Shown piece by piece: positions 865 to 62,020 of a stretch of DNA of 64,000 nucleotides. The notes below the pieces were generated by a model that had not been told where the DNA came from, searched no databases, and saw only the letters and a list, made by a program, of their open reading frames with translations. Source of the DNA: Laetmonice hystrix (Eukaryota); assembly GCA_965235115.1 (NCBI GenBank), contig OZ249436.1, positions 17,114,001 through 17,178,000 of the forward strand, in the 5' to 3' direction. Positions within the stretch are counted from its first letter, which is position 1, and every line of letters begins with the position of its first letter. Both the position numbers and the translations under genes were made by a program.

Positions 865-8104
<7,240 letters not shown>

Positions 8105-10812: not shown

Positions 10813-16595
<5,783 letters not shown>

Positions 16596-21745: not shown

Positions 21746-24289
21746 CTACGGTTTGAAGTACCATTCATACACCTTCCAGCTGCAGAATGCTGTCGCCAGC
21801 AGTGATATGGTCGTGTGCAGTACTTTCCTCCTGAAGTCATCCTTTCGAACAAGGATGACAGGCGATCCTGATGTTAAATGATGGAGTGGTACTTTCTGTA
21901 ACTTCTTGGGATCATACTCCAGTTGATATTTACAGCATGGGTCAAACTGCCATGAAATAGTGTACACCCCAGCACAAACAGCACTGGCAAAACCTAGTGG
22001 CAAGTAATAATATCCTTGGTCTGGCCAGCAGTAACCTGTCCCAAGGCATCCGAGTCCTGCTAGAACGGCCGTCTTGTGGAGACAGTTGCCCACAGTGACC
22101 CAGCGCGCAGTTTCTTCACCTAGATTGTATGGTTCAATGATGATGACTGGAACTTTGTCTTCGAGGGCCTTCTCCAGTTCATTTTCAAAGTACTCTGCTG
22201 CGTTGTCATTCTCATAGATCTCCCGGATTATAATGTAGTCATCATCTGAACCTTGACTAAAACAGAAGGAAACTTGTGTGAGAAAACGGAACAAAAGTTT
22301 AGGAATAAGTTTCACACTGTGACAGGGACATACAGAGCCAGGTAAGTGCAATGGGGGGGAGCATAAGCATTTACAGCATAAAAATTTGGAAAAGGCCACA
22401 TTCTGTTCCATTGTTAACAAGCTCATGAAGCTTAGCCCCACAAAATGCTCTGGATCCCGTCTTTCTAAGAATTTCACTTTTGCTGGAGATCGTCGTTAGT
22501 AAGACAGGCTCGTGGAGTCTTGAAGAAACAATGACATTGCAAGGTCAAGAATGGTCATAGAAAATATTGTTATGTGACCCACTGAAAAGGTGCATGATCT
22601 GGAATGAAATATCAAGGTAATGAAAGGTTGAAGAAAGTGTTCTGCAACTTATATGACTTTCTGTTCACCTGTATTAATAACTTAGGTTATCTTCTACAGT
22701 TCTGGAGATATTAGAAAAAGTGGATTACCTTGATTTCCTTTTAAGCCATTAAGGCCATGAATAGTTGAACTTGAAGAAAATAGTGCCATATAGAAATTGA
22801 TAGACGACTTCCTATAGTATATGGTTGCCATATGGAAATTGATAATATACGACTTCCTATAGTAAATATATGGTTATCGTACTTTTATTTTTTTGCAGGG
22901 GGTTGGGTGGGGGTGAAAAAACAAATATGGTCGGCTCGCCATGCAGGCCTCTGAAAATTGAAAATGTGCGTAACCCATAAATGGGTTCCGCAAATTTTTT
23001 TCAGGTAAACTATTCATTTTGCGTAACCCATTTACAAAACTGTTAGGCTATGTAAACTCAGTAAAAGACTTATCACTTACACATGGATATGGATTTCTTT
23101 AATATTCCATAAACATAGCGATATACTGAGAAGCATGCCAAAGGAGACATTCAAAGATCGTCAATTATTTCACCAGAACCGGTGAGTTTAAAACCCGTCT
23201 TACTAAGGTCTAGTTAGTAGCGTAACGTATAGGGAACGGTCTAGTTAACTTAACGGCTGGGGAGGGGGTGCCGCTAACGTTGTCTGGTTGTCACCTTGGC
23301 GACGGCCTACTTTACCAGCAGTTAACTATATCGTATACGATGTTTAGTAAGACGGGCCCCAGGATAGGCTGGCAGGGCGGCGGTAGGTAGGGACAGCTAC
23401 GGTGGCCGTGGGGAACCCCATGATCCCATGCACTGACCGCTCAATCAGTCACCAGTCCCCTGCCCTGGCACATGGCATTATGTAATAGGTGGGTCTGGGG
23501 AGGTAAGGGTGGGTTTGTGGACACCTGCTCAGCCTGAGTTATTCCCCCACTATGTCTTATTGTCTATGCCAGTCTATGGTAACATTCCCACGAAATTGGT
23601 GGTAAAACTAAAAGTTCAGGAATAGGGGTTGCGATAGAAGTTGGGATAAGTTTTTAGGGAGTTTGACTAGGGGGAGGATTAGGTTTCAGGGCCAGCAATT
23701 TGGTACGTCAGACATTATGTCTGATGTCCTTGAAAAGTTTTCGCATACACTGTGTATCATAATCATAGGCCTACCCGGCGACGAATCGTCGGGTCGGAAG
23801 AAATCTAGCAGTGCTAGACTTGAAGCGGGTGATACACCCTGCGACTTTTTTGTCAGCGACAAAAAATCGTGAGTCGCAGCGTGTATCATAATCACCCGTT
23901 TAATAAGGGGACCGCTGACTGGTCCCCTGCTCAACTCCTATCGCATCGGAGATAGATCTAGTCCTATCTCCGAGAGGAGCGAGGAGTGAGCAGGGGACCA
24001 GTCAGAGGGGACCGGGGCAATAGTGCTGCCGCCACGCGGAAAAGACGGTAACACAAGTACTTGAAGTAGACTAGTCTAACGTGTTAGGCCTATCTCATTC
24101 TACCACGGAAAGAATGCTCTTCAAGTTCAAGGAAAAGGCTGCTGAGTAGTTCGTTCAGAGTAAAATTTAATCCTATAACATTTTCCGACATGGTATATAT
24201 TTCAGGCAAGTGTCACTGTTCAATGAGGAAAGGGTCACAATGTAAGTCTGACGAAGTTCATCTCACCTTTCTGGACCGGTGTCCGCCAT
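21746..24289 (-). CDS. TMEM11: Transmembrane protein 11, mitochondrial
   Basis: Two exons 24289-24267 (MADTGPE, phase 2) and 22256-21746. IIREIYENDNAAEYFENELEKALE, LGEETARWVTVGNCLHKTAVLAG, ISWQFDPCCKYQ and SPVILVRKDD match TMEM11. Confidence 0.95.
23194..23360. mobile_element. Harbinger-like MITE (family with GGGCCCGTYTYACTAA ends), degenerate
   Basis: cccgtcttactaa ... ttagtaagacgggcccc followed by ag; related to the 24560, 46387 and 60797 copies. Confidence 0.6.
23915..24005. mobile_element. 91-bp palindromic insertion with 9-bp direct flanks (MULE-like MITE)
   Basis: ctgactggtcccctgctca...tgagcaggggaccagtcag flanked on both sides by AGGGGACCG (23906-23914, 24006-24014). Confidence 0.65.
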
Positions 24290-24559
24290 TATTACTTACT
24301 GAAAACGAGGCTGTGGCCGAACTCCGCACGGCTGTTGCCCCCGCCCCTTACATAGGACGCTGGGCACGGTACAGATCTGCTTGGAGCATGGTGGTGTATG
24401 ATGTACGAATACGATACGACATGCTAAATGTTCCTGCGTTGGCTACTCGTTATTAAAACGTTTTCCTTTTGATTGTTTGTTGTCTCTCTTTCCGTTTAAT
24501 TCCTGAGTTAGGATGTTAGATTAGAAATCCATTTTTTTAACGTCGTAGACACGAGACAG

Positions 24560-24701
24560 GGGCCCGTTTCACTAAGGCTGGTTAATAACCAGATCGTTAA
24601 GTTAACATAGGAGTGAATGGAAGGCTGCTGGTTACAGCCAACATTCACTGCTATGTTAACTTAACGATCTGGTTATTAACCAGCCTTAGTGAGACGGGCC
24701 C
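24560..24701. mobile_element. Harbinger-like palindromic MITE in the TMEM11/GGA divergent promoter
   Basis: cag|GGGCCCGTTTCACTAAGGCTGGTTAATAACCAGATCGTTAAGTTAACATAG...CTATGTTAACTTAACGATCTGGTTATTAACCAGCCTTAGTGAGACGGGCCC|ctg, near-perfect hairpin with CWG flanks. Confidence 0.8.
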
Positions 24702-25011
24702 CTGAACTAGTAAAATTAAAAATGAAAAAAATCCCTGCTTTCTGCTTTTTTTAATCATAATTTTACATAAAATGATCGAGTTTCACTTTTTTGGCTAGAC
24801 TAGAGACTAGAGATCGAGGGTTTGCCTAGTTTTATACTTAGTCTAGATCTCTAAATATTGATATAATCTAATAATTTGCAAAAATTAAATTTTGCCCCCC
24901 CCCCTCGGGATGCGTCGTCTGCTAAAAGCCCTCGTGTGAAAAACTGCCGTGCTGACGTTTCAAATCTCGTCAGAACGAGATCTTAATTCACGTGATCAGC
25001 AAGCCGTCAAC

Positions 25012-31000: not shown

Positions 31001-34000
31001 GCAGTCAGTCAGCAGGCAGAGTGCTGGCTGGAGACCTGACATCACCAGCCCCTGCTGCCACCTGGTGGCAGTCAACAGGCACAGTGTTGACTAGACCTGA
31101 CAATACCAGCCCATGCTGCCACCTGGTAGCAGTCAATCAATAGCCGACTCTGACCAGACATGCAGAACTTTACACTCTCACCAAGTGGGGGTCAGTCGAC
31201 AGGTACAGCATTGATTCCGACCTCCTGATACACAAATAAACCAACCCATGCTGCCACCTAATGGCTAGACAAAGAACTAGTTTCAAGATAGGTTCAAGGG
31301 TGTATGTATTCTTCTGTGTCTGTTCGACATTTCGCACCTTTTCTGGTCATATACTGTAAATCACTTTAATTTTGCATCATTAAAATTTCGCGTTTTCTTT
31401 TTCATTTTGGGCTGGTGTGGCGTTTCTTAAATTGGCGTTTAGGAGAATCCGCCATGCCGTGACTTCAGTTCCAAGTGTTTATTTGGCCTTTCTTGATTTC
31501 GTGTTTTTGTTGAAAACGCGAAATTAAAATACACGCAAAAAATACCTGATATATAGTAGTCTTTCTCCTGTTCAATCATATACCGGCAGTTCAGAAAGAA
31601 CACTTGAGACCATCCCATTTCCTGGCTATCTTAGTCAAGTAATGTAATCCATATTCAAAATCTGTATGTTTAATTATTGTTTTCTCATTGGTTTATTTTT
31701 GATCAGGTGATGGCAGGCAGAACCATTGATATATTTCTCAAGAGAGACTAAAAAGCTGATACAATAGATGTTAGATGAAGTTGACCGTGCCATATTGTAT
31801 TGCAGACATTTGAAGGCCCAGTAGCTGAAAGACCTAAGAATACAGTGTTTGATGATGAAGACAAGTCCAAGGTTTTCCTCCTTTCTCATTACTTTACTGA
31901 TCAAAGGGTAGAAAACAGTCCTACAATCCTAGATTTTACCATAGAACTGTACTGGGAGGGAAGACCAACTCTCTCTTTTTTCCGCTTGGGGCGCTAGTAG
32001 TCTTATGCGTTTGCAGCGCCCTCCAGTGGTTATGAGACCCGTAACGTCATCTGCCTTGGCCCAAGTGTAAACATGGGAAGGACCGATCGTCTATTGTGTC
32101 CCTGGATGCACAGATTATCAAAATAGAGCAGGACGAAAGGCAGGGAGGGTTAATTAATTACTGCAGTAGATTTATCTAGCCCACACAGACAAACATATGC
32201 ATTTCAAACGACTGACACCGAATTATGTACTCGCGCCAGTTCAAGCGGGCTTGGCCGCAAGGCTTGGGTCAACCCCCAATAAGAACGGCCCATTAGAAAT
32301 ACTAAATCACAACAATAATTTTAGAATCTATCCAGGCCGGATTTTAGAGGAATCCTCGATCTATAAATGTATATGGCATTCACATCTGTTACTTAATCTT
32401 TTCAAAATTTACCCAAAAAAACTGTCAGATTACGAGGGTATGAAATTGTAACGTCACAAACTTTGCCGATCTCCGGCTGTGCCAGTGCTTGGATTGAGAA
32501 AGGAGGGACCTTGCTAAACCATTCTAAGTCTATGACATTGTTTGGTTCAATATTCTATCCCTTTATATCACGTTTCGATGTCCTTCCTTGTGTATTTTAG
32601 TAGTTAGGTGCGTTTCAACTGCCGAAGCGAAGCGCCGTCCGCCATTTTATTTAGGGCCCGTTATGATCACATTCCATTGTGACCCATTGTGACGTAGCGC
32701 TATTGTGCATTGTTCCTGACGTCGCTGATTGGGTCTCTCAATCACGGAGTGGACAGGGCCCGATAAAATCGATTTTTAAAATATCTAAGAGTTTGCTAGG
32801 GCACCTAGATTTTTTCCAAGCCTTGGCTACATTCTGCTCCACTGCCTATACACTTTATCCATAATCAAGTTGATGTTTAAATCCAAGAGAGTCTAGGCCT
32901 AATGTCGCCGTCCTATGCCGAGCGTTGCACCCGAGCACCAGTCTCATAACCACATGGGAGCGCTGCGAACGACCCTACATATTTGAGCGATAATTTGGGC
33001 AGGAAAGAGAGTTGGCCTTCCCTCCAGTACAGTTCTATGATTTTACCTATCTCCATAAGCTTACACTGTTAGAATACCATGCTTATTGACTCGTTTGATT
33101 TTCAAATACGGAAACTTTAAATTTGATACACCTGGCTGCCATTTTACATATGTGGCCATGATTTTAGCTGTTGTCAAGGTTACTGAAGAGTAAACATCCA
33201 GAGGATCTCCAGGCTGCCAACCGGCTCATCAAAAACATGGTCAAACAGGTGCGTAAGGGTTTAAAGAGGGGAGTAAGGGGGTTGGGGTGGGGGCAGACGG
33301 ACGGAGGAGTGGGGTTTAAACAGGTGGTTGAGGTAGATTAGGGGGGTCAAACGATGTGACAGGATTAGGGGTCAAAGAGATCAGGTGAAAGGATTCACTG
33401 AAAAAAGTTTTCATGAAATCTTTCAATAAAAAGTAGGTCTGCAAAACAAATGGAAATAAGTATTTTTCTTTTGCATGTAACAGGATGCAGAACGTATGGA
33501 AAAGAAATCTAGACGACAAACCGAGCTGGAGACAGTTGGAAACAATGTAAAACTGCTAACAGAAATGCTGGAACATTTCTACCCTAACTCAACATCTGCA
33601 GCCGACAAAGATTTGATGAAGGTAAGTCAAATATATAAAAAAAATTCTTATTGGACATCATCCTCAGATTGTCATAATTTTAAAGGACACAGGCAAATGA
33701 CAGCAGGTGTATTGGAAAGAACCAAATATTTGTCTGAAATCTTTTTTACAGAATAAAATTGTTAATTACCTTTTTCATGACTCTTTGTCACAGGAGTTAT
33801 ATGAGAATCTGGAGAAGGAGAGACCAAACCTGTTCCGACTCGCTAGTGACACAGATGAAAAGGACAATGAAGGGATAAGTAAGTCTGCAGGCTGGCGATG
33901 GCCAGACAGACCAGGGGTCTCGTGTTGTAATCTACGGCCAGACAGACAGGGGTCTTCGTCTGGTAGTCAGCTGAGGTCAGATGTATGAGAGGTCTTGTAG

Positions 34001-37000
34001 TCAGCTGAGGCTAAATGTATAAGAGGTCTTGTAGTCAGCTGAGGCCAAATGTATAAGAGGTCTTGTAGTCAGCTGAGGCCAAATGTATGAGAGGTCTTGT
34101 AGTCAGCTGAGGCCAAATGTATGTACTTGTACTGATGTGTTCCTAGGTTTGACCACCAACCATTGTTGTTACAGATGCAATTCTCAAGGCCAACGATGAA
34201 GTGCTCAAAGTAATGACACGGTATAAAAAAATGGTAGATTCAGAGGATAATGGGTTGCTGCTGGACACGGGAGCATCTGGAGGGAAGAAAGATGGTATGT
34301 TGTTCTCCATGTTCTCCATAACATGGTTTCAAAGCTAAGGCTGAATGAAATATCCCTATTTTATACAGGAAAAAGTGTGACATTTTTACATTTCTATTTC
34401 ATGAACTACATTAATTTGTTTGTTTGTTTATTTAATCATTTGTCTGTTTTTTTCATTCATTTTTTCCTTTATTCATTCAGATGTGGCCTTCGCAAGAAGT
34501 CCAGTTTCTTTATTATCTTGTGCAGATTGTTTTGGTCATTTCATGCAGAATACTTTTTCAAATAACTGATGTTTAAGGTTACAGGACAAAGCGTATACGA
34601 ATACCCCTTGAAGTTTCGATCAAGGTTTCTATGGGAGGGGGAGGGAAGAGGATGCTCGAGGGGAAAATGTATGTTGGATTAGTGTCTGGATCCTGGAAGT
34701 ACCCCCATGACCCCCCTTGCGTACGCTCCAGCTAGCCATGGACAGAATCATGACAGTAGTGTTAGAGGTGTGTAGACTGAGAACCTGGATGAGGTCTGTA
34801 GTGTCAGTTATTAATTTTGTGAGGCCATGTTTGCTCTATTTCAGCTGACCTTGTAGATTTACTCGACTCATCCTCCACAGCCCCATCCTCCAGCCCCCAC
34901 ACACAGAATGACCACAACTCTTCTGCTTCCATTCTCGATGATCAATTGATGGTGCTTGGTGAGTCCCCTTTGCCCCACTAGGTGGCGCTACAAAGAGCCC
35001 TGGTAGGTGGTGCTGTACACAGAAGCCTGACCCTGGCATGATCAGCGTTACCTTGACTTTCCAGGACATTCACACACTCATGACCTCTGGCACGCAGGCT
35101 GTGACTGATTCACCAAGGCTACATGATAAATTATGTGATTATTTATGAAATACCGGGTATGAAGTTCAAATAAGCCATGGCCTTGACACATGAAGGCAGG
35201 CAGGATTTGATTAAGATTACCTCAGCCCAAACTTGGACCACTTCCTTACCCTGCAGAGATTCATCCCATGGAGAGCCTGCGGCCAGATTGTCATGTCGCT
35301 TGTTGTTGATTGTACGCTGCTGTGTATGAGTTGTGGCCATATAGTTTTAACGTAAGCTTCAGGTGGAGACTGTGTTCCGTTTCAGATTCGATGTTGTTGC
35401 ATGACCTACAGAGTGAGTAGACATTTGCTACAACCTTGGCATGTATACTAGGACTGCTGTGCAGCATGAACTCTGGGTAGAGCTAGAGGGTGTCGATGAG
35501 CTCTGGTTGGTAGAGCTAGAGGGTGTCGAGGGCTCTGGTTGGTAGAGCTAGAGGGTGTCGATGGGATCTGGTTGGTAGAGCTAGAAGGTCTGAATGGGAT
35601 CTGGTTGGTAGAGGTAGAGGGTGTCGATGGGCTCTAGTTGGTAGAGCTAGAGGGTGTCGATGAGATCTGGTTGGTAGAGCTAGAGGGTCTGGATGGGATC
35701 TCATCTGGTTGGTAGAGCTAGAAGGTCTGGATGGAATCTAGTTGGTAGAGCTAGAGGGTCTGGATGGGACCTGGTTGGTAGAGCTAGAGGGTTTGGATGG
35801 GCTCTGGTTGGTAGAGCTAGAGGGTGTGGATGGGCTCTGGTTGATAGAGCTAGAGGGTCTGGATGGGATCTAGTTGGTAGAGCTAGAGGGTCTGGATGGA
35901 CTCTGGTTGGTAGAGAGAGGGTCTGGATGGGATCTCATCTGGTTGGTAGAGCTAGAGGGTCTGGATGGGATCTAGTTGGTAGAGCTAGAGGGTCTGGATG
36001 GGATCTGGTTGGTAGCTAGAGGGTCTTAATGGGCTGTGGTTTGTAGAGCTACAGGGTCCGGATGGGATCTGTTCCCTTGAAAACCTGATGGCTTTGTGGA
36101 GCAGAAATATTCTGAAGCCGTTCTACCTGGAGGTTTATTTTGTGAATACTGAGCCCACTGGGATAGATTTAGGCTGTTTGTTTGGCTTCAGTAGTTTTAG
36201 TTAGAGGTTGGGATAATTTATTTTAATACATTGTAATGGACCTTCTTGCAGAGAATGTACTTGACTTTTCAGATTCTTTTCTCAACGAGATTTCTAAAGA
36301 TTCTGTCCCCAAATCATCTAATATACTCAATTAGTTTCCTGACTGAATGTTTGTAATCTGTTAGTGGCAGTAACTGTCAGTGTAGCTTAGAAGCCTGCAT
36401 GAAGACCTGATTGGGTGGTTAGGAGCAGGGTCAGACTGACCCACTAACATGGCCATGGTTTTCATCAGCTACCCCTGGCTACCACCAGCACACATATAGT
36501 CTGCCCCAGGTGCTGGCCCAGTATGCCCGAGCTGCTGGCCCAGTATGCCCCCGCTGCTGGCCCAGTCTGCCCCTGCTGCTGGCCCAGTCTGCCCGAGCTG
36601 CTGGCCCAGTCTGCCCCTGCTGCTGGCCCAGTATGCCCGAGCTGCTGGCCCAGTCTGCCCCCGCTGCTGGCCCAGTCTGCCCCTGCTGCTGGCCCAGTCT
36701 GCCCGAGCTGCTGGCCCAGTCTGCCCCTGCTGCTGGCCCAGTATGCCCGAGCTGCTGGCCCAGTCTGCCCCTGCTACTCAGTCAGTTTTGTCCACACTTT
36801 GGGGAAAACATGTGGGTGAAAAACTAGGGTGTGGCTGTGTTCACATTTATCTTTGTGTAAAAAATGATAAAGTAAAATTATGTCCTAAAGAAGCTGAGAA
36901 CCGGTCTGACAACCACCTAACAGAGACCAGATCTGAGAAGGGTAGTTTCTGCTTGACTCTTGGCTTCTAGTCCCCATCTGTGGGAGGCCGAGGTGGGACA

Positions 37001-40000
37001 TGTTTATACTAGGGGGGGCACACTCAGATTGAGTACCTTTCACAAGTAATGGTAATGACTCGTATGAAGGCATCATAATTTATTGTTTGATTTGACAGGT
37101 TTGGCCGATGGCAGCGCTGCGCCAGGAGACGGGACAAACAGTCTGAATGAACTAGGCGAGATCTTTGGTTCCACCACAACAACCAACACAGCTTCAGCAA
37201 CATCAGCCAGTGTTAGTTATGAACTAATCTTAACGCACAGTCTAAAGCCAAGGGTTCTCTGTATAAAATCTGCTTGAATCTGGAACGTATGCATAACAGT
37301 ATAGTCAAAGTTTGCTGAGCCCAAGGCTGACACTTATCAATGAGAGATAAAAGTTGAGATGCAGCCCCACAGGTATGATTAGTTCCAAGGCCTTGTATAT
37401 ACAGCATTCAGATTTAGTTGTCAGAATTTACAGCATTCAGATTTAGTTGTCAGAATTTACAGCATTCAGATTTAGTTGCCAGATGTGTCCCTCCAGTGTT
37501 CCCAGAGTTTGTATCAACCAGCTTTTTTCTCCATCAGGCGATCGACTCGGATCTGTTTGGACTGAAGACAAGTGGTTACTCGGGAACGGCCAGTCTGGGC
37601 AGTTTGGGATCCTCACCTGGTAACTCAGGATTTTCCAGCTTCATGTCGGCAGCCGCAGCTTCAGCACAGACAGCTGGTCCGACCCAAACCACGCCATTTA
37701 GTGTGGTTCAGCCCACGGCACCGATACCCAATCTAGGTACAATGAGTCCTGGTACCATGACGCCAACCCACACAGCCTCTGGAGTTCTGCTCAAACCAAA
37801 ACCAATTGGGGGTCAGAACCAGGCCGTCATCACAGGAATCCTGACAGGTCGGTGTAAACTCCACTTGTGTGGGGCGTTGTTAGCTTTGTTAAATGGAGAT
37901 TCTTGTTTGCTGAACCCTGCCTGAATATTGAGATAAACTAGTATAGTAAAGGACAGAATGTGGTCCATTCTAAGTGTGGGTAAAAAAACGAATAGACAGC
38001 TTGAAATAGGCTTGTTAAAATGAAGGAAGGTCAAATTTGAAGTTCGTCAGTATTCTGATGAAAGTTCCATTGTTCTGTACCTGCCGCAGCAAGTCAGAGC
38101 CAGATCAGCCCTGCCACCGGTACAGTCTTTACACCTGTCTCAAACTCGGGTGTAACAGCTCCGACACAGAAATCTGCACTCGATGACCTTGATGCACTGG
38201 GGCAGTCATTATTACAGTCGAGTCTCTCTCCAAGCACACGTCAAACACCGGCCAATAAGTAGGTTACTGAGTCTGTTACCTCAAGTAGGTCATTAGGTCA
38301 GTTACCTTTAAAGTAGGTCACTGAATCGCTGAGAATCAAATAAAGTTGTCCTGTAATCTCGGATTAGCCAAAAATGTAGATACCAGCTAGACTATTCAGG
38401 ATAATAGTTAGACATAAAAATGACAGGTTTCAATAGAGAAAATGAATGACATTTCCAGGTGCATACTTAAACAGACAATCCCTGTTTTCCACAGTGCGGC
38501 AGCTAAGATAGCCCTCAACCAGATGCAGAAACCTGCCTCGCCCACGCCAGGTTCTGGAGACCCATGGACCCAGCCCAGTTCACCGGCCCTCAAGGCTTTG
38601 TCCCACTCCCAGGCTGGACCCATGGGTTCACCCATAGCCACACCAACAGGTTCAGCCCATGCCTCCCCCAAACGTACCCCAGTTCAGGGAGGTCCAGCTA
38701 AGACGGTCGAGGTGCAGTCTCTCTCGGATTTATTTGTTCCACTTGAATCGGTGAAACCTGGTAAGTCTGCAATGATACCCTGAAGATGACAGGGTTTCCT
38801 TTCTAAGACCTTATTAAGCTCATATATGGCCTTATAGTTTTAAACAAGAAAAAACTTGTACAATTTGCTATTATGATCTACAGAAAATATGGGCTCTTAA
38901 AGGGAGTCGTAAAATTCATTTTTTCGATTTATGGCAGTCTTAGAAACATTATGATTCGCATACCTTGGACTCCCAGTAACATCATGTGAGACTGTTATGG
39001 CCCAGCGACCAGTATTTAGTAAGGAAAATATGCCAAATCTCTCGCAAATACGTAGCTCAGAATTAGCGAGCGGCCCACAGGATATTTGAGTTGGCCGCGG
39101 TCGGGCGATGATGACGCGTGATCACGTGACTTCCGGGTGTGGAAGGGAATCTCCCTCTAGTCTAGCATTGACCTAAATACTGCATGTACACCCGGAAGTC
39201 ACGTGATCACGCGTCATCATCGCCCGACCGCGGCCAACTCAAATATCCTGTGGGCCGCTCGCTAATTCTGAGCTACGTATTTGCGAGAGATTTGGCATAT
39301 TTTCCTTACTAAATACTGGTCGCTGGGCCATAACAGTCTCACATGATGTTACTGGGAGTCCAAGGTATGCGAATCATAATGTTTCTAAGACTGCCATAAA
39401 TCGAAAAAATGAATTTTACGACTCCCTTTAAAATATAAGTGTTTAGTTGAGTACGCTGAAATCATGCTGACATCCTGGAGATGCTGCTGACTGTGCCCCA
39501 TGTTTACAGGTACGGTGGAGCCACTGACAGCCTATGACAAAAATGGCATGAAGATTGTGATCCACTTTGGTAAGGACACACCGCGTCCTGATGTCACTGT
39601 GATGGTAGTCTCCTCAATGTCCACCAACACCAGCCCTGTCAAGAACTTTACCTTCCAGGCGGCTGTTCCAAAGGTAACAAAATTTTTGTTTATCAAACTA
39701 TTGCTGGATACATTGTTGGAAATGCGTTTTTTTTTCAATACCAGCTTTTGAAGAACTGCAGTCTGAGGTTAAGCTTACCTCTGTTACTGGGTTTGGAGAG
39801 TAACAGTTAGTTGATCTCGTATAGCTCTGTTACTGTGTTTGTACAGTAACAGTTGGTTCAGTATAGGTTTGTTACTGTGTTTATACAGTAATAGTTAGTT
39901 GGTTTAGTATAGCTCTCTGTTACTGTGTTTGTACAGTACAGTTGCTTTAGTATACCTCAGTTACTGTTGCTGTAGTATACCTCTGTTACTGGGTTTGTAC

Positions 40001-45530: not shown

Positions 45531-48500
45531 TTACTGTAATTTTCCTGCAGACACAGGTTGGTTTTGAGAGGCCTCCAGCATGAAGCTTGCTGCGTGTAGT
45601 ACTGCAGGTAGTGATGTGTTTTCTGTGTGCCACCTGTAATACAAAATCATGAGACGATTTGGACAATCAAGAGTACAAGAACTTGAGAGGGAGGGAGACA
45701 TGCCTGACCCCCCTTAACCATGGTATCTCTTGCACGTTTTTCTTTTCTCCCTTATAATAAAATGTGAACCAAGCTTTCATTTCTAGAAGGAACCAATATG
45801 AATACGAAGATTTATATGAGGAAGACATGCATGTTTCACAACTAACCTGCCTGTATGGATCCCTGGCTGAGGGCTTAATACAACTGCTGCGATACTGAAA
45901 GAGAACCCAGAGAGGTGAGGCTAGATTAGGGGAACATGCTTATGAGTCTTGCAACCAAACTATAAATTTGAATTAGGTGCAAAGGAACCGCGGGAAATCC
46001 TCATTGTTAGTCTCTCATCCCTAACCCTTCAATGTGACTTTTCTTTAAGATGAGAACTATATTCACTGAAATTCTTAAAAAACAATTTTCTCAATGGTGG
46101 TGCTTACTTTGGCACCTTGAGAAGATTGATAAGTTCGCTGCCACGTGCAGACAATGCTTGCTTGGTGACATCATTCAGGAGGCTATGACTGGGAGGTTGG
46201 CTCAACTTGGTCAGACATAGCATCACTCGGGGAATCAGGTCCTGGGACCGTGAAGCCAACTGTCAAAATGTAACGACAGCTTGGTCAGACATAGCATCAC
46301 TTGGGGAATCAGGTCTTAGGACCGCCAGGCCAACTGTCACAATGTAATGACAGCTTGGTCAAACATAACATCACTCGGGGAATCGGGGGCCGGTTTTACT
46401 AAAGGTCGATAATAACGACGTCGATAATTTAACATAGAAGTGAATGGTTGCTAGGTCGTTATTTTCGACCTAGCAACCCATTCACTTCTATGTTAAATTA
46501 TTGATGTTATTTTCGACTCTTTAGTAAAACAGGGCCCTGGTCTTGGGACCGAGAAGCCAACTGTCAAAATGTAACGACAGCTTGGTATGACACCGCATCA
46601 GGACGGGAATCAGGAGGGTGTTTCAATAAGTGTGTTGGACCGTCTGAGTGGCGAGGACAGTCTGTCACTCGGTTGTAGGATCTGCAATTTTTGGTCCGTC
46701 GCCGGTCGGACTGTCCGACACGCTTATTGAAACACCCCCTGGTCTTGTGACCCTGACGGCAACTGTCCAAATAAAACGACGGCTTGGTCAGACACAGCAT
46801 CACTCTGGGAATCAGGTCCTGTCCTGAGATGCCAACCGTCAACTGTCAAAACGTTTGGTCAGACATAGATCCTGCAACTGCAGTTCTGACATCACTGATA
46901 TACACTCTCTGTATATCTATGTGAAGATGTGAAAATTAGAACTCAGCATGCCATCTGACAGTAGATAATTTACATACAAGATCAATAGTTGTATGTGATG
47001 AAGAGGAGAGTCCAGACTGAGAAAAGAGATCAAACCTTGGCAAGAGTTGACATGATACTGGTGAGGAGTCGGGCCGAGAACTTCTGCTCCATTGCACCGC
47101 GAGTCTCTGATGTCAGAGAATCCTCTGATGGCATTGCACCAGAATGAACCAATCCTGAGACTTCGTAGACCAGAGTCTCGATGGCCTCGTACATGGCTGA
47201 TATTTTATCTGGGGTGCAGCGACTGTCGTAACCCACACACAGATATTCCCCTACCAACCACATCTAAGAACAGAAAAAAATCAACCAAATCTCAACGAGT
47301 ACATGTACACAAAAAACATCAACTGAATCTCAATCAGTAAAACTATAATATTCTCCAATCAGCTGATGCTGTGACAGGCTGTAACATTACAATAATAATG
47401 TTTATCTTACTATGTGGACAAAGAAATCCTCGCCACTGCTGACATTTCTCAGGCTGATGAAGTCTAAGAGTTCACTGTATTGGTCCATCATCAGGTGAGG
47501 GTACAGTTGGAACAACGCCACCAATTGGTCAGCAAACACACTACAACCACAAAGGTCAGAGGTCAAGATACTGACAACCACGAGCCTCATCCCCTCAGCC
47601 TTGTATGGACCTCAGCTGAGGTGAGCCCTGTCCTTTCTGGACCTCAGCTGAGGTGAGCCCTGTACTGTCCGAACATCAGCTGAGGTGAGCCTTGTACTAT
47701 CCAGACCTCAGCTGAGGTGAGCCGGGTACAGTCCGGACCTCAACTGAGGTCAGCTGTACTGTCTGGACCTCAACTGAGGTGAGCAGTGTACAGTTGGGAC
47801 CTCAGCTGAGGTGAGCCCTGTACTGTCCGAACATCAGCTGAGGTGAGCCGTGTACAGTCCAAACCTCAGCTGAGGTGAGCCGGGTACAGTCCGGACCTCA
47901 ACTGAGGTGAGCCCTGTACTGTCTGGACCTCAACTGAGGTGAGCCCTGTACAGTCCGGACCTCAACTGAGGTGAGCCCTGTACTGTCCGGACCTCAGCTG
48001 AGGTGAGCAGTGTACAGTTGGGACCTCAGCTGAGGTGAGCCATGTACTGTCTGAACATCAGCTGAGGTGAGCCGTGTACAGTCCAAACCTCAGCTGAGGT
48101 GAGCCATGTACAGTCCGGACCTCAGCTGAGGTGAGCCATGTACTGTCTGAACATCAGCTGAGGTGAGCCGTGTACAGTCCGGAACTCAGCCACTGGAATG
48201 CCTGAGGAGTCTGGATTTCTGTTACAGAATATATATAACTTACGTTGTAATGCCCACAATGCTATCTGTTAGGATTCAACTAATATCTTCAATATTATGT
48301 TCAATGTTATTCTCTAACCTGCGCACATCAGCCTGGAAGACGGGAATATTGTAGAGGAGCCTCGAGCGCTCTAGGATGACAGGTACCAGGGTTGACGCTA
48401 ACTCTCCCTCACCCTCACACACCACCACATTAAAATATATCCTGTACGGCAAGAAACATCCACAATCAGAATATTGATGGGGTGGGGGTCTTCAAAATCA

Positions 48501-51500: not shown

Positions 51501-54500
51501 TGTTGAACAATGGCATCTTGTGAAACCTTGGGTTCTGAAACACACCACACAATGACACTACTATCATGGGGTCCAGGTGAAGTTGGGGAGGATTGCTAAC
51601 CCTAAGGATTTGAAACAAACAGGGTGCACACATTCTCAACGAATGCGCTGATACAATTTTGTTTTTGATTTAAAGATGGTTGAGATCAGTTCACAACATA
51701 AACCCTGCTGGCAACCCAAGGATGAAGAGTTTTTTTTATAGTCACTGGGATTTAGTGTGTGACTGCAGGATGCTGAGTCATCTGTTTCTAAGCATCAGTT
51801 TTTGCAATGTCACTGACTAAGCCTCGAGCACACAGAAACTGAATTACAATACAACATCTCAGAAGCTCATTGAGTCATGTGATGTATTCACAATTTAAAG
51901 GCTAAGTTAACAAGGAACTAACTTCTATCCCACTGATCAAGGATCCGCAGACAATATTGCAGTGATGCATCCTCCAGTGTGTGATTCGTCATGGAAGGTG
52001 TCGGGGAGCTGTCTCCAGTACTGCTTACACTGTCCAGGGTTGGGCCGACGTCGCCACCCCCATGCTGGGGACTGACCCCCCTAGTGTACAACAACCACTC
52101 CTGGAGCACAGAGAAACCATGCAGGTTCATCAGCTGGTCGTCCGTGTAATAATTACCTGCCGAGATAATAAAATAAAGTTTCAACAAAAAACGTTCCTGA
52201 ATATTGACTGGCCCCCAAGGAAAACAATATTGTCTTGCATCATTGAAGATTATACATGTGGAATAGGAGGAAGAGCTCTTGGATGGATGGAGAGAGATTT
52301 GTCATTTATCACCAAAACAAAGAGAAACTGACCAACACACAGAGCTGTGAAGAAGTTCTTTGTAACCTGGCCATCAATTTCTGTAACAGGAGGCTCTTCA
52401 TCTCGCTTGAAGAGTCGTCGGGCATACGGGTTTGGTGCCTGATGAACGCTGGCGCCTTGCAGCCACTCCATCAACTGGCAGTCAACAACATGCTGGTGGT
52501 CTACAACAGACAAATGTTGTCAGACAGCAGTCATCAAAGATCCAGTCTGGTACACAATAGATAATAGTTGTCAGACAGTAGTCATCAAAGTACCAGTCTG
52601 GTACACAACACACAACTGTTGTCAGACAGCAGACATCAAAGATCCAATCTGGTACACAATACACAACTGTTGTCAGACAGTAGTCATCAAAGTACCAGTC
52701 TGGTACACAACACAAAACTGTTGTCAGACAGCAGACATCAAAGATCCAATCTGGTACACAATACACAACTGTTGTCAGACAGTAGTCATCAAAGTACCAG
52801 TCTGGTACACAACACAAAACTGTTGTCAGACAGCAGACATCAAAGTACCAGTCTGGTACACAACACAAAACTGTTGTCAGACAGCAGACATCAAAGTACC
52901 AGTCTGGTACACAATACACAACTGTTGTCAGACAGTAGTCATCAAAGATCCAGTCTACACAACACACAACTGTTGTCAGACAGCAGTCATCAAAGTACCA
53001 GTCTGGTACACAATACACAACTGTTGTCAGACAGCAGACATCAAAGTACCAGTCTGGTACTTTGATAACAGATAAGGGTTACAGTCAGCCAGTATCAGGT
53101 TGGGAGTCCATTTAAATATCCACAAACCTTTTGTGATGGCCATGGAGTGACACTGAGCCAGGTGCCCTAACGCTGCTAGAGCCCAACTTTGTACTTCTGC
53201 TGTGTAGCCTACTGTTGTTAACCATCTGCACTTCCAACAAAACAACTCAAGGTCAGAAAATCCTGTTGAGATGTAAAAGAATGTCTTGCACAGTTGTGCT
53301 ACTGTCTATTTTCATCTTACCAAGCAATAACACTTTATATGGATGATGCAGAGTCATGTACCCATACATAAACAACTAGTTCAGAGATCCGTTACATTTA
53401 CTTGATGCTGGTGTGGTGCTCACCGGACAATTTGTGGACCAATATACTGTAGGACATCTTTGTCACACACCACCTGTTAGATAATGACACAGTGAAGTTA
53501 GAATACTGACATCCTGCCTTCATGAACATTCTATCAAAATAAATACAAAATTTACCTGTGTCATCATCCATTCAAAATGTTGTAGGGGGTAGCATTTACA
53601 ATGTTGTATGGTATAGTATTTAAAATGTTGTAGGATGTAGTATTTAAAATGTTGTCGGGTGTAGTATTTAAAATGATGTAGGGTGTAGTATATATGTTGT
53701 AGGGTGTAGTATTTCAAATGTTGTCGGGTGTAGTATTTAAAATGATGTAGGGTGTAGTATATATATGTTGTAGGGTGTAGTATTTCAAATGTTGTCGGGT
53801 GTAGTATTTAAAATAAAACAGGTACCTGATTCATGACCACTGGTAGTATATATGGTATCTGATTCTCATCACATGCCAGTGCTCCTTGTGGTAGGTTCAG
53901 GTTTGCCAAGGGTGCCATCTCTGACAACACTGCACTGGCAATTGTTTTTAAATGTTGCAGAGACTTGTCCCTCAAAAGTAGGATCTTCACAAGGGCATCG
54001 CAGAGTTGCTGGGGTAACCTAAATGATGTCATATTAATGTGTTAAATTTGAAACTGTTCAAACAGGAATTTTCAGTTTTACTCTTCCTTTTATATATAGG
54101 CTAGTTCCAGTCTTGAAATACGACTTTCCCTCTGGAAAAAAGGACCTTGTAAAACCCCAAATATAATTTGTCAAATATAAAGCATACCTGCAATCGGAAC
54201 GACCGAGCCATTTCTGGTTTACTTTGCTTTCGGGAACTAGACTTAGGCAGTAAAAGTGTAGAAATTCTACGGACATTTAACGGGAATCTGCCGGATGCGT
54301 GGTGTGGTCTCTGATCCAGCCGATTGAAAATTTAGTGCAGTCGATCGACCAACTGTTTTAGGTGTTGTGTGCATATAAACAATTTTTCACCAACTGTGAA
54401 TGTTGAAGGGCAAACAAAGGCTCGCATATTGTACCGCACTTAGATCGGCCGGATCAGAGACCACACCACACATCCAGCGGATTCCCAAATGTCCGTAGAA

Positions 54501-55134
54501 TTTCTACACTATCCGAGTCTAGTTCCCGAAAGCAAAGTAAACTGGAAATGGCTTGGTCGTTCCGATTGGCACGCCAGCAGGTAGAACCAGATCTCACCTT
54601 CTATTATTGCGTGTGACATGAACGATAGTGAAGAGTTGGCAGAGAGCGTGGAGAGAGTCTGACACAGCACTGCCTCCACTGATCATCTGTATCAGACCAT
54701 CACTGAACGACTGAAGTTCACTCGCCGAGAGATTTCTGAAATCAGTTCATTGATAATTACATCATCATTATACACTTGTACAGACTACAGTACAGTACAG
54801 CCAGGCCAGTGTACATGGTTTGGGGATATATAACAGGTTTGTTCAAAACAACCTTTCACATGATAACCTAGCCAATATATCGACCTACTCACTGCGTTAC
54901 ACTACGTTCGTAGCGTTAGAAGGATGGCCACATCTAATGATAACCCATCAACAAGGGGTCAACGACGGGGAGGGGGTGGGGCGATCCCAAACCCGAAAAC
55001 AAGAGTAGAAAGTATTCTAAACTTCTCCTTTTATCGCTCAGCTGAGGCTAAAAGAAATACTGTTCAGGATGATTTAAGGCAATGTGCACTAACCTTGCTT
55101 GAAATATCAAGTTTTTTATCCCCTGTTCTACCAT
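45531..55134 (-). CDS. AP5Z1: AP-5 complex subunit zeta-1
   Basis: Exons (minus) 55134-55094, 54735-54598, 54018-53826, 53473-53424, 53225-53128, 52500-52333, 52156-51923, 51534-51497, 51308-51152, 50043-49865, 49745-49662, 49323-49127, 48822-48736, 48441-48319, 47540-47411, 47263-47036, 46259-46108, 45894-45847, 45633-45531 join in frame. PVTEIDG..FFT, YTDDQLMNLHGFSVL..WL, FPNIFKILAWNP, LHTLLDLP, WLVGEYL and KLASRSQDLIPR match AP5Z1. Confidence 0.93.
46387..46536. mobile_element. Harbinger-like palindromic MITE inserted in a duplicated exon copy
   Basis: gggccggttttactaaag...ctttagtaaaacagggcc, hairpin, same family as 24560. Confidence 0.75.
46614..46738. mobile_element. Second Harbinger-like MITE family inserted in the neighbouring exon copy
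   Basis: cag|GAGGGTGTTTCAATAAGTGTGTTGGAC...GTCCGACACGCTTATTGAAACACCCC|ctg; a related short element may lie at ~3465-3543. Confidence 0.75.
47605..48190. repeat. 32-bp minisatellite, ~18 copies, palindromic core CCTCAGCTGAGG
   Basis: ggacctcagctgaggtgagccctgtactgtcc repeated. Confidence 0.95.
50187..50665. repeat. 44-bp minisatellite, ~11 near-identical copies
   Basis: cagcccacagaaatcattactacatgatccacactactgttact. Confidence 0.96.
52505..53062. repeat. 51-bp minisatellite, ~11 copies, abutting an AP5Z1 acceptor
   Basis: acaactgttgtcagacag(c/t)ag(t/a)catcaaagtaccagtctggtacacaa(t/c)ac-type unit; fills most of intron 52501-53127. Confidence 0.95.
53570..53812. repeat. ~21-24-bp AT-rich minisatellite
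   Basis: tttaaaatgttgtagggtgtagta repeated next to the donor at 53825. Confidence 0.9.
54191..54568. mobile_element. Foldback MITE with ~130-bp imperfect inverted arms
   Basis: CAATCGGAACGACCGAGCCATTTC..ACTTTGCTTTCGGGAACTAGACT..GTGTAGAAATTCTACGGACATTT.. mirrored at the right end; flanks gcatacctg / gcacgccag may be a decayed 9-bp TSD. Confidence 0.8.
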
Positions 55135-56628: not shown

Positions 56629-59600
56629 ATGGAGATAGTGTATGTTTACACAAAGAAACGAGCCGAGTTTGGTCGGCAGTGTAACTTCTCAGATCGACCT
56701 GCGGAGCTCCATGTAGATATCGTGCCAGATCCATCACTGGCAGACAACTTCATCGAGAGAAATCCAGTAGACACATCGACGCAAAATGTGCAGGAAATGT
56801 CCGAACATGAGGTACAAATTAGTGGAACAGTTTATTATTTTGTTCAGTTTGTTAAAAATGATTTGTAATAATATGTAACAATGTGGTAATTCTTCATTTC
56901 GTTAATTTTCATTTTGTTGATTATGATGAAGCACAGCAGATTAACTTTATTTTTCTTAGAACATCATAATTAGATATTTTACAATTTTTCATACCGTTTA
57001 ACTAGTCTTTTATGTATTATTGTTTTCAAGGTCAACACGGAAAGATTTGAAACTGATACAAGAGGTATCAACCACACAGAGGGTGGTTGGCCAAAAGATG
57101 TCAACTCGCAAGAAATTGAGCAAGTAATGCGTTACAGAAAGAAGGTGGAAAAAGATGAGAGTTATATGTATACCATTCAACAGTTGGCTGGCGTGATGGA
57201 GCACTGCATTCGACAGAACAATGCCATCGATATCTATGAGGAATACTTTGATGATCTCGATGTGGACATAGAGGATGAAGTACCATCTGCCAAAACAATC
57301 AACGTATTCAGGTTGGAAGACTCTGTGCTACCCATAGGGCTTTCATATTGGATGATTTTTCTTCCTAGAGCATTTTTAATTGATGCATTGAAATCACTAT
57401 AGCCAGTAAAGCTCTTGTGTGGCCAAAGAGTAAAAACCTGTGTCAGTGCATGTCTTTTACAGATCTATACATGTGTGCTAAATTTCAGAGATCCTAATGA
57501 GCTGAAGAGAACTAGCACACACATCTCATGGTTTCCTGATGGTCCGCGTAAACTTGCCATCGCTTACTGTAACTTAGATTTCCAAGGTTCATCACCAAAC
57601 ACCTCATATGACTCCTACATCTGGGACGTGGGTATGTATATAAGTTTCTCATTCTCACATTTTAGTCAGAAGATTTAAATATGACATGATATAATTATGT
57701 AATATCATATTGAGTTCCCAATATTATTTGCAGCTAAAAATTTGTGCCACCTTTTGATGACTCAGGCCAAAAACTGGCAGAAGAACAAGTCGAATTAAAT
57801 AGCAATCTTGTTCTGTCAACACTGCTACATACTTTTGTTCTTCCAGAGAACCCCAACAAACCAGAGATGACCCTAAAGCCAGTGTCACCCCTTGTATGTC
57901 TCGAGTACAATCCCAAAGACTCTCACATCCTGATTGGAGGACAGTATAACGGACAGATTGCCTACTGGGACACAAGGAAGGGGTCACAGCCAGTTGAAAT
58001 GTCACCCATTGAACAGAGCCACAGAGATCCTGCGTATAAAACAATCTGGTTACAGTCGAAGACAGGCACTGAGTGCTTCTCTACCTCCACCGATGGCCAG
58101 GTACTGTGGTGGGACACACGCAAACTGGGAGAACCAACGGAAAAACTCTACCTCGACCCAACAAAAAAACAGGATTTCAATAAGGCCCAAGGTGCCATGG
58201 CCCTTGAGTATGAACCCACAATGGTAAGTGCTTGTCTTAGCATGCATCACTATTTAAGTAGATTAGTTATACCATCAGCACACAAGAATATCACAGATTG
58301 GTTTGAATGTTGCATGTCTATTTTGTCCTTTCATTATAAACATAAGTTTATCATTAATTTTATTATAGCTTGCAAATCTTTCATCGGTATTGGATGGTTC
58401 ATTTTTCAGCCGACAAAATTCATGGTTGGAACAGAGCAAGGAAATGTAATGTCATGTAACAGGAAGGCCAAGACACCTGGCGAGAAGATTGTAGCCATTT
58501 ACCCCGGCCACCACGGTCCTGTCTATTCACTGCAGAGAAATCCATTCTTCCCCAAGAACTTCCTCACAGTGGGAGACTGGACAGCCAGGGTAAGTTGGCA
58601 GCAAACATGCAGACCTAGGCCTAGGGCCGGCAGAGTCTGGCAAAGGGTTTTTGTGGAAATGTTTTAGTGAAGTTGATTGAGACTGGGTATTGGAGACATG
58701 TACCCAGCTGCCAAGAGTATGAAGGGCTAATTCATCGAAATTATGATCAGGTGGTATATATGGTCTGGCTACACAGATGAAAAAAAAAATTGTTTGACTT
58801 CCAGATTTGGTCTGAAGACATACGGGAGTCATCCATCATGTGGACCAAGTATCACATGGCATACCTGACAGACGGATGCTGGAGTCCCGTTCGACCAGCT
58901 GTCTTCTACACGACAAAGATGGATGGAACACTGGATATCTGGGACGTCATCTTCAAACAGAATGATCCCACACTCAGTTTACAGGTAGGAGAGTTCTCTC
59001 TCTGGCAAAGATTTGTTTTATGGAAACATGATGAATGTTTTTAGTTTTGATGCTGTATCCTTTGCTAAAACCTGCAGGGTAGTTTGCTGGCAGACCATGG
59101 TTAATTATTAATAATCAAAGAGCAGAACTTTCTAAGTTCCTCAGGTTTTAAAAATATTTCCTGTATTTTGCTTGATTGTTGGCAGGTGTGTGACGAGCCC
59201 TTGTACAGTATTAGGGTACAGGACAACGGACGTCTGATAGCGACAGGATCACAGACAGGGACAACAACACTCCTCGAACTCTCTAACAGTTTATGTACAC
59301 TACAGAGGAACGAGAAGGGACTCGTCACAGCGGTCAGTATACTGAGTACAGGCAGGGAGATTTTACAGGGAAAAATGAAAACACAGCAAGTTGGAAGAAG
59401 AGTGATTTCAAAGATAGAACTAAAGCACAACCCCAAGTTCCAACTGCCTTACAGTCAACAGTTAAAGCTTTGACTGAATCATTCTAATTTGAATTAGTGA
59501 ACTTTTGTCTTCAATGAAAAAGTTCAGTTAACCTGACACTAGTTGACACATATAATTCAGTTAACCTGACACTAGTTGACACATATAATTCAGTTAACCT

Positions 59601-59818: not shown

Positions 59819-60796
59819 GTAGGCAGGAAGATTTTTCTGACACTTGGTCGAAGAGAGAACTCTTCGACTAGTATATTGTTCTGTCCGCTCGAACAGCCTC
59901 CCTGGGACGGTCCACTCCAACTATCTATGTTTTCTCGTTATTCTTTGAATTGATGCTGGAGGACAGCTTTTCTTGTTGTAATTTTAATTTCAAACTAATT
60001 TTAGATTTAGGCATCAGATAAGCATCTTTCTTGATTCATAAGTTGTTTTGAAAATTATGTCATCAAATACTCAGGGTATATCCTTTATTTTTGTATTTTA
60101 GGTAAATAGTTTAACTTTAGAATTTAACTCATGCATGCATTACCTGTATCAAGCAGAGTATTCTTAATATAAACTTTTTGAATCACATAAAATATGTTTA
60201 ATAACATAATTTTTATCTAATGCCACTGCATGATGACTCAGTTGTTACATATGAAATTTTGATTTAAAAAAAATCGCTTTAAATTATGACCTGTTTCCTT
60301 GTCTGTCATATTGCGTCTGTCACAAAGTGCTCATGTCATGGGTCTGGTGATGACACCATCTGTTTTATGTGTACCATGTCAATTTTTAAAAACGATTTTC
60401 CTACTTGTTGAAGTACAATGATGATGGAGTGGAGCGGGTAAGTCATGCCCCACGGAGCCCCCTCCCCCTCCCTCCCAACAATCTGAGAGATTTTGTTATT
60501 TATTTTTCGGGAGTGTAATGGTGTTATACCCTGGTGTATGGTAGCCAATGGTCTCCCATCTCCACCAACTACACAGTCGACCAGTTGGAGGTCTCTTAGA
60601 ACTGAGAGTAGCTCTCATGAATAGTGATAGTAGGATCATCACCTTACCTGTATGATATGTTGTTGTAACCAGTCAGATAGTCGGAGTATCCATACCTCTC
60701 ATTAGTCTCAGAGATAGTGTTAGTATTTACAGCACCGTGACACTTGGTGTTAGCATACCCAGACCTGTGTTACCTGATACTCTTTTACAGTACCAG

Positions 60797-60949
60797 GGGC
60801 CGTCTTACTAAGGTCTGGTTATTAATGATATCGTTAAATTACACAGGAGCCAATGAGAGCCCGACTGGTTATTAACTAGTGGACTCCCATTCACTTCTAT
60901 ACTAACTTAACGATACCGTTAATAACCAGACCTTTGTAAGACGGGCTCC
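60797..60949. mobile_element. Harbinger-like MITE (same family as 24560)
   Basis: cag|gggccgtcttactaaggtctggttattaa...ttaataaccagacctttgtaagacgggctcc. Confidence 0.7.
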
Positions 60950-62020
60950 CGATGGGTACATAAGTCATTATTTTGAAGACATAATCATTATATCGAGTGA
61001 CTGGCATGCATTGTTAGATTTGGAAGGTTTTGCTGTGTATTTGAGATTTCTAATTGATGTGAGGCAATGGCTACTATTTGACCAAGAAATATGTGGAGAC
61101 TTTTAAAAAGAGCCGGTTTTGATGCAAGCTTTGTATTAAGTGTAACTGTAAGCACTGCCTTGTGCAGGAACTATGAGGTGCATTTTTTGACCAGCACTGG
61201 TTTATTTTCACTTCAAAAAGAGATGAAAAAGGAAGTTCTAAACAACAGCTCACGAAGAATCTAGTTTTTTTCGATTTGATGGATTCATGATCTTTTCTAT
61301 TCCGGCCCTTGATTTGATATTACTCCACATATTTCAAGGTTTTCCTCAAACCATTGTCCTGAGAAGGACAGTGGTTGTTTAGACATTGACCTCATATCAG
61401 GAGAACTTTACCGACGTGGACGGCCAGTTGAGACTTGGTGGGAGTGGAGTATATACTATCACACATAATTCCTCAGGTTACCCGGTGGTACCCCTACGTA
61501 CCCTGGTAGTAGTTACCCAAACTACGGGAATCCTTACCCACCCACCCCTACCCCTGGTTTTGTCTTACAACCCCAGTGTTGTTCAGTTTAATTCAACCTT
61601 CCATTTGTGATAATGCTGTGGCGCCACCTATAACGAGTTTGTCATCAGTCATGGCGGCAGACGGCCATGACAACGATGACACAGACGTTGGTTCCTTTGT
61701 TTTAACAGATCTACAACTTCAAATTTCGATATTCTCTCATTATCTGGACATTATGTGACACATTTTTGTGATTTCTTCTTTCTGTTTCAGTAATTTAGTG
61801 ATTTTAATATGTGTAGACATTCGACTACAGTAACACTTGAAGAGAGAACTTTTAGCTATCACTAGCTGATGACATCTGTTTCCCATGCTAACCACCGTTC
61901 TGTTGCATTTTGCTAAAACAAAGGAATTAAGGGTACACGTTTTGAAACCCCCAGCTGAAGGGCTGAATTAAGTTACAACAAATGTATATTAAATGCTTCA
62001 AAAAAATAGTGTTTATGTGT

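Follow-up and report, generated by a model that had tools for sequence, protein, structure and literature searches.

Two different hairpin elements inserted at the same site of adjacent copies of an AP5Z1 exon edge in Laetmonice hystrix

The stretch of DNA analyzed here (64,000 nucleotides of Laetmonice hystrix, contig OZ249436.1, positions 17,114,001 to 17,178,000, hereafter the window) carries on its minus strand exons of the gene AP5Z1. One intron of this gene holds partial copies of the adjoining exon, two of which are interrupted at the same place by short hairpin elements that we have called M1 and M2. The coding exon concerned (46108..46259, 152 nt, phase 0) was assigned to AP5Z1 by Pfam (PF25154, TPR_AP5Z1_C, E 1.9e-12), and its span of the profile (positions 261-314) directly continues that of the upstream exon (47036..47263, positions 200-260). 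The best solved relative is AP-5 zeta-1 (PDB 8yab_A, E 2.5e-5). A homologue search using this exon matched none of 27 candidates, and the identity of the gene came from Pfam and PDB. Between the two exons lies a GT-AG intron of 776 nt (46260..47035, minus strand, donor at 47036|47035), which contains the copies and both elements. We have also used contigs from four sequencing runs (X1 to X4), all from one sample of one study. One X4 contig corresponds exactly to 46108-46259 with 0 differences, and this same contig joins 46259 to 47036 precisely across the intron. X4 is probably a transcript assembly, because the three larger runs list no 46259-47036 joint.

Tandem Repeats Finder and a repeat search identified a unit of 74 bp composed of 20 nt of the acceptor region plus the first 54 nt of the exon, present on the minus strand of AP5Z1 as five full units and a remnant that begins at 46855. 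The first unit (U1, 46206..46279) consists of the 54 nt of the real exon and its 20-nt acceptor; it contains an empty CAG at 46236-46238, the site that is occupied elsewhere, which in the real exon belongs to a conserved Leu codon. The second (U2, 46280..46353) is likewise empty, is 89% identical to U1 and has an intact decoy AG at 46334-46335. The third (U3, 46354..46580) is interrupted by M1; it is 93% identical to U1, and its decoy acceptor (AG 46561-46562) equals the real one over 25 nt. The fourth (U4, 46581..46782) is interrupted by M2, is 77% identical to U1 and 73% to U3, and has an intact decoy AG at 46763-46764. The fifth (U5, 46783-46854; 46783..46872 together with the remnant) is empty, is 81% identical to U1 and has lost the AG at the canonical place, with another AG located 7 nt upstream. 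Among the seven AP5Z1 exons tested, copies of the exon's own edge were found for this one only. The acceptor and the first 54 nt of the exon have been tandemly amplified into the intron, multiplying a single CAG site. Such tandem copies across an exon-intron boundary are of the kind known as mirages in amphioxus, which contain cryptic splice signals, reportedly without disturbing splicing (Ebner et al. 2010, PMC3087553).

Contigs of X2 and X3 skip 301 nt of the array (46251 to 46553), corresponding to two units, M1 and one triplet. We have not accepted this as an empty allele, for 34 letters fit both sides of the joint, longer than the assembly word. The skip may reflect a graph collapse over the 34-nt repeat or a contracted allele. 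X1 covers 46256-46388 at a depth of 71.8, similar to the flanks (66.4 and 73.7).

M1 (46387..46536, without assigned strand, as is M2) is a hairpin element of 150 bp with 18-bp termini that start with GGG and GGC. Its arms are 81-84% self-complementary, and folding of 46384-46533 gave a z score of -16.9, with none of 200 shuffles as good. M2 (46614..46739) is a hairpin of 125/126 bp with termini GAGGG and CCCCC (GAG/GGG starts), a stem of 39 nt that is 85% paired and a z score of -9.8, again with 0 of 200 shuffles as good. [quoted passage not shown] No BLAST match was found between them, only a loose likeness in the first 16-18 bases. From 1630 to 1906 contigs of X1-X3 map to 46050-47100, and their depth is concentrated on the two elements (summed contig depth in X1 peaks at 459,539 on M1 and 72,496 on M2, against about 66-74 in the unique flanks). 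These values, hundreds to thousands of times the flanks, are not copy numbers and give no exact copy count, but since contigs pile up on both elements, both belong to high-copy families. In the few long pieces among those listed, M1 and M2 differ from other copies by about 5-18%. The contig-end data used below comprise those rows and pieces that were listed (24 of the 647 loose-end rows, 30 of the 5520 pieces), with left and right ends unpaired. Among these rows, the other M2 copies behind 46739 end in five C followed by CWG (W, A or T), so the element properly has 126 bp and the copy studied here has lost one C at its right junction. The initial annotation had the bounds of M1 right; its end for M2, 46738, needs to be read as the end of a 126-bp element minus one C, which reaches 46738 or 46739.

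That two different MITEs occupy the homologous CAG of adjacent exon-start copies, as the initial annotation had suggested, was borne out by the alignment of the units. Both elements begin at offset 33 of the unit, and once each is removed together with one triplet, U3 and U4 are each exactly 74 nt long and align without gaps. The same three empty full units (U1, U2 and U5) all have CAG at the target. One insertion duplicated along with its unit is hard to reconcile with these data: the host units are 73% alike, the elements are unalignable, and no alignment column unites U3 and U4 alone. Since U3 is 93% like U1 and 73% like U4, there were two events and not one duplicated insertion. Two different non-autonomous hairpin elements thus came to occupy one site in two copies of the array.

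How unusual such a double hit is can be estimated from the 2782 CWG sites of the window. In random draws of 5, 7 and 10 of these sites, two fell on homologous repeat positions in 1.3%, 2.8% and 5.8% of the trials, a chance per window high enough for such cases to turn up when many windows are scanned. The site had been proposed to be a Harbinger hotspot with a target like that of Harbinger3_DR, for which an extended preference with a 15-bp consensus is described (PMC3016246). The CWG core of this comparison holds. Outside it, 5 to 6 of 12 flanking positions agree, scores equalled by 22.6% and 8.2% of the CWG sites in the window, respectively. The fit is better to the flanks of the M2 family: of the rows listed, 4 of 6 read G-W-C-C-C going outward from the triplet, and all 6 have CCC at +3..+5. 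The exon version of the site agrees with this consensus at 7 of 10 positions (equalled by 17 of the 2782 sites) and the U3/U4 version at 6 of 10 (equalled by 96), which places it in the top 0.6-3.5% of CWG sites in the window. Taken together, these values weakly suggest an extended target preference, for M2 only. Several points weigh against a larger role for it. The consensus comes from six rows of one sample with an agreement of 0.38-0.54; outside CWG, the M1-family rows have hardly any consensus (agreement 0.37); a second CWG six bases off scores equally in U1 and U5 and is destroyed in U2-U4; two of seven elements fall within 227 bp of each other by chance in 14%; and a double hit expected in 1.3-5.8% of windows needs no extended preference at all. 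Some preference for the target is thus retained from the hotspot proposal, in a modest form, CWG alone giving 1.3-2.8%. Loss of the second CWG in U2-U4 may have left one favored site there. It is also plausible, as had been proposed, that selection keeps the coding copy empty, although this is one site and almost every CWG is empty anyway.

The triplets that flank the two elements are not exact duplicates. On the plus strand, M1 lies between CGG (46384..46386; CAG in the family consensus and in the empty units) and CTG (46537..46539), and M2 between CAG (46611..46613) and CTG (46739..46741, its C shared with the shortened C run), the target of both having been CAG. The CTG reported after both elements is therefore there, and what does not hold is a Harbinger-style duplication of the triplet, M1 having CGG/CTG and M2 CAG/CTG at a CAG target. 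In the contig-end rows listed, the other left ends of M1 before 46386 all end in CA (4 of 4), while other M1 copies show CTG in 3 of 3 rows before 46405 and CAG in 2 of 2 before 46401; the other M2 copies have CWG in 6 of 6 rows behind 46737/46739. We have gathered relatives of M1 without presupposing their flanks. One at 24557..24704 (element 24560-24701), 72% identical, forms a near-perfect hairpin outside any array and is flanked by CAG and CTG. Another (60794..60951, element 60797-60948) has CAG and CCG and is ambiguous, and a short one of 59 bp (22450..22514, element 22453-22511) has CTG and GTG, compatible with a direct duplicate. A fourth, L003, is a 136-bp element with M1-like termini at 295-437 of an AT-rich metagenome contig, probably from another eukaryote, and its flanks again read CAG...CTG. 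Of the six elements with readable flanks, four (M1, M2, 24560 and L003) thus have inverted triplets, one (60797) is ambiguous and one (22453) is compatible with a direct duplicate; the decayed relatives 23191-23359 and 3466-3545 and a lone end at 11094 were dropped from this tally, one or both triplets being unreadable. As a separate observation, three M1-like elements (22453, 23191 and 24560) lie within 2.3 kb (window 22450-24704), suggesting local clustering of the family.

L003 was the only one of 26 loci with M1-like termini and CWG flanks in a metagenome scan for paired copies. Five others (L008, L011, L012, L016 and L020) are similar at their termini, but their flanks differ or their inverted repeat is longer; the remaining 20 look like chance. 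The same scan of viral contigs gave 4 loci, representing 2 distinct sequences and lacking G-rich ends or CWG, and of prokaryote genomes none. Our literature searches found no mismatched CWG flanks in natural Harbinger copies, although Sinzelle et al. 2008, Kapitonov and Jurka 2004, Repbase or Fig. 4 of PMC4482050 may show them; the available parts of PMC3733837 and PMC4423477 contain nothing on mismatched Harbinger flanks.

The middle base of the triplets varies among family copies, and only 2-5 of 10 positions outside them match directly. These two facts, a variable middle base and the lack of an outer duplication, show that the elements do not have the triplets as fixed termini. For the same reasons we have rejected a hAT-type element with fixed CAG...CTG ends and an outer 8-bp target site duplication (TSD), in which cutting out these ends would moreover remove the target triplet. 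Gene conversion among the array units was also rejected as the source of the mismatch, as it should restore CAG on both sides alike and cannot act on 24560 or L003.

We consider it close to an even chance that the CAG...CTG flanks arise at insertion itself. The most likely way for this to happen is the carry-over of donor triplet overhangs, to which, by analogy with other elements, we give nearly the same chance. A PIF/Harbinger element would be excised by a staggered cut through its old triplets and would travel with 3-nt overhangs; where the middle base of the donor differed from that of the target, ligation would produce a heteroduplex junction (A.A or T.T), and repair or replication could then fix the donor base on one side, leaving non-identical flanks. 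The two strands would yield both CAG...CTG and CTG...CAG, the former possibly being favored as well. Parts of this scheme have been described elsewhere: for mPing, excision through staggered cuts within the TSDs, leaving 5' overhangs, has been proposed (PMC4561436), mPing once excised brings donor-derived TTA/TAA to sites cut by a nuclease in an engineered setting (PMC11254759), piggyBac carries its overhang (PMC7351741), and asymmetric piggyBac TSDs at non-canonical sites have been explained by overhang carry-over (PMC8717057, quoting Li et al. 2013). Full carry-over predicts 25% for each of four flank classes and 50% mismatched copies, which fits the tally (P 0.1-0.3), and the unpaired M2 ends among the rows listed have A and T roughly evenly, as carry-over predicts. 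The general form of the proposal, that natural CWG-targeting NuwaI-like Harbingers keep their donor-cut 3-nt overhangs and have them joined by ligation to the target, so that the previous site contributes in part to the middle base of either flank, is offered tentatively, with somewhat less confidence than either statement above.

A number of facts stand against it. The sample of flanks is six, and M1 and M2 were noticed post hoc; the left triplet of M1 is mutated and the junction of M2 is one base short. All four mismatches are of one kind, whereas carry-over in its simple form should give the two kinds in equal numbers (two-sided P 0.125). When mPing transposes freely, the duplication is stated to remain intact (PMC11254759). 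The unpaired right ends of M1 mostly read CAG in the orientation of the element (25-31 contigs, in 3 of 3 runs of the one sample), so CAG...CTG is not the dominant class.

The rival that survives best, unlikely as we hold it to be, starts from exact CAG/CAG duplicates that were later turned into CAG/CTG by template switching, that is, mismatch correction within a hairpin or cruciform. The strong hairpins of M1 and M2 speak for it, as does the fact that on fold-back CAG and CAG pair at both outer bases, and in 24560 a perfect stem runs through the triplets, where the symmetry ends (0 of 10 outside). Such a correction should, however, also have reached the arms of M1, which keep many mismatches even in the first 6 bases, and L003, whose short termini leave 34 of 68 positions paired, has the same CAG...CTG flanks. 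It also predicts CTG...CAG as often as CAG...CTG, and these were seen 0 and 4 times.

Somewhat less probable again is a combination of coincidence and decay, in which CWG specificity together with many elements and arrays produces double hits and the flank changes are point mutations. The per-window chance given above is in keeping with it, as are the divergence of about 5-18% from the other copies listed and the damage to the left triplet of M1 and to the M2 junction. The flank changes themselves argue otherwise: the same A-to-T change is found in both copies and in two unlinked relatives, and the probability that point mutation at a divergence of 5-15% would produce at least three of the four unambiguous cases of the window is P 6e-5 to 1.6e-3, lower still with L003 included. 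Nor does this reading account for how high the site ranks by the M2 flank consensus (among the best few per cent).

It is very improbable that there was a single ancestral insertion, with a single targeting event and a single flank mutation, which was duplicated with its unit, one copy being later swapped by gap repair via the similar termini. M1 and M2 have in common CTG as their right flank and, four bases beyond it, a change from C to T, and their terminal 16-18 bases are loosely alike, as this would need. The shared T is also found in the empty U2, the unit identities group U3 with U1 rather than with U4, no column joins U3 and U4 alone, and 24560 and L003 would be left unexplained.

The initial annotation also raised the idea that the insertions disable decoy exons. 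This was not supported, as the acceptor AGs of U2, U3 and U4 are intact, the elements lie 21 nt downstream of them, and the U2 decoy has no MITE. Use of a decoy puts translation out of frame, with a stop following at codon 6 (U2), 18 (U3) or 13 (U4). No joint to a decoy acceptor appears among the contig joints listed, contigs being prone to drop rare splice forms. Decoys may be used at a low level, and nothing suggests that the elements are needed for splicing. That the insertions were retained for silencing decoy acceptors, by placing them beyond exon-definition distance or by hairpin sequestration, is the least probable reading of all: U3, with its perfect copy of the real acceptor, does carry an element, and its use would give an exon of 453 nt instead of 300 nt without M1, but the insertions leave AG and pyrimidine tracts intact, no element sits in U2, the decoy that lies nearest, and use of U2 leads to the early stop, mirages free of MITEs reportedly leave splicing undisturbed (PMC3087553), and no decoy joint was listed.

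Leaving the origin of the flanks aside, an amplified array that received separate CWG-targeted insertions is the probable explanation of the locus as a whole. With still greater confidence we hold that M1 and M2 were inserted separately by transposases of the Harbinger/NuwaI type cutting at CWG, helped by a mild context preference and by the multiplication of the target, and that they are neutral passengers, splicing still using the real acceptor. One point goes against this: no DDE or Myb family match was found in the 91 open reading frames (ORFs) scanned of the 125 in the window, so that the mobilizer is deduced from the ends and flanks of the elements.

The double insertion joins three known things, namely minisatellites at exon edges, CWG-targeting Harbinger MITEs and parallel MITE insertion, and is of little consequence for AP5Z1. 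Beyond the double insertion itself, it is the asymmetry of the flanks that is the lead of this case, the hotspot being modest and decoy silencing unsupported. If the carry-over is true, this asymmetry would be genomic evidence on the cutting and joining steps of animal Harbingers, known mainly from plant mPing assays. Pipelines that require exact TSDs would then miss or mis-date up to half of the elements of the CWG type. Each insertion would keep a record of one base from the site of its parent, a parent-to-daughter tag, and would introduce a mutation into the host target; in tandem arrays whose empty units are known, the insertion event could be read out directly.

The window contains other repeats and genes. 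An array of 57 bp x 11.8 at 18620-19281 has a unit that ends an adh_short-like exon and includes its GTAAGT donor, and is a donor-side mirage; one of 71 bp x 26.5 at 4660-6542, with a GTAAGT donor-like motif per unit, is probably another. Within an AP5Z1 intron, a 32-bp x 18.3 array (47607-48190) contains a palindrome and, on the strand opposite that of the gene, a motif resembling a donor; it copies none of the AP5Z1 exon edges that were tested. An element of 1.1 kb (31940-33039), whose inverted termini start with CAT and which has an exact direct repeat of 7 bp outside them, is one that we take to be P-element-like, and another of about 333 bp (27479-27811), which ends in CAG...CTG and is bordered by a direct repeat of 5 bp, presumably resembles the hAT elements that have 5-bp duplications. 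A near-perfect palindrome of 535 bp with TTAA at both bounds (38897-39431) is, we assume, of the Kolobok or piggyBac type, and a long hairpin element of 378 bp is found at 54191-54568. A GGA-like gene (VHS and adaptin-ear, 28466-39748) lies tail to tail with AP5Z1, and there are also an ORF for a mitochondrial morphogenesis regulator (21749-22495) and a WD40 ORF (57738-58664).

Among known systems, the elements are closest to the NuwaI group of PHIS/Harbinger transposons (Han et al. 2015, PMC4482050), which has CWG TSDs and TIRs of 12-61 bp mostly starting with GGG, and under which HARBINGER3_DR is listed as NuwaI-2_DRer. The CWG triplet at the site, the G-rich start of the termini (GGG-type TIRs) and the animal host are the same. 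Here, in contrast, we have non-coding hairpins of 125-150 bp, no partner transposase was found and the flanks are of the CWG type yet non-identical. Because an exact triplet duplication is lacking and the transposase was not found, we call M1 and M2 NuwaI-like and not members of the group. The extended preference weakly suggested for M2 seems to differ from the consensus of Harbinger3_DR itself (PMC3016246).

The flanks find their nearest parallel in mPing (PMC4561436, PMC11254759) and piggyBac (PMC8717057, PMC7351741), where the excised element keeps the overhangs of its old duplication and a mismatch with the target can leave asymmetric flanks. For mPing the carry-over was shown only at nuclease-cut sites (PMC11254759) and for piggyBac only at rare non-canonical sites (2%, PMC8717057), whereas here it would concern natural transposition, the target accepting either A or T as its middle base, with up to half of the copies affected. 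The array resembles the mirages of amphioxus (PMC3087553) in its boundary-spanning copies, its cryptic AGs, its unit length (74 bp, within the 10-160 bp reported) and the greater divergence of its edge units, and differs in that two units are interrupted by MITEs. The double occupation recalls the Stowaway MITEs of carrot (Macko-Podgorni et al. 2019, PMC6881990), in which different families are found at one exact site, more commonly when their TIRs are similar. Different MITE families, an identical target and similar termini that favor the event are common to both cases; in carrot the insertions represent alternative alleles that different plants have at a single locus, and here they lie in paralogous tandem copies on one chromosome, which received Harbinger-like elements. 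The arrangement in AP5Z1 is thus like a parallel insertion of NuwaI-type MITEs into an array of the mirage type, and all its parts are of known kinds.

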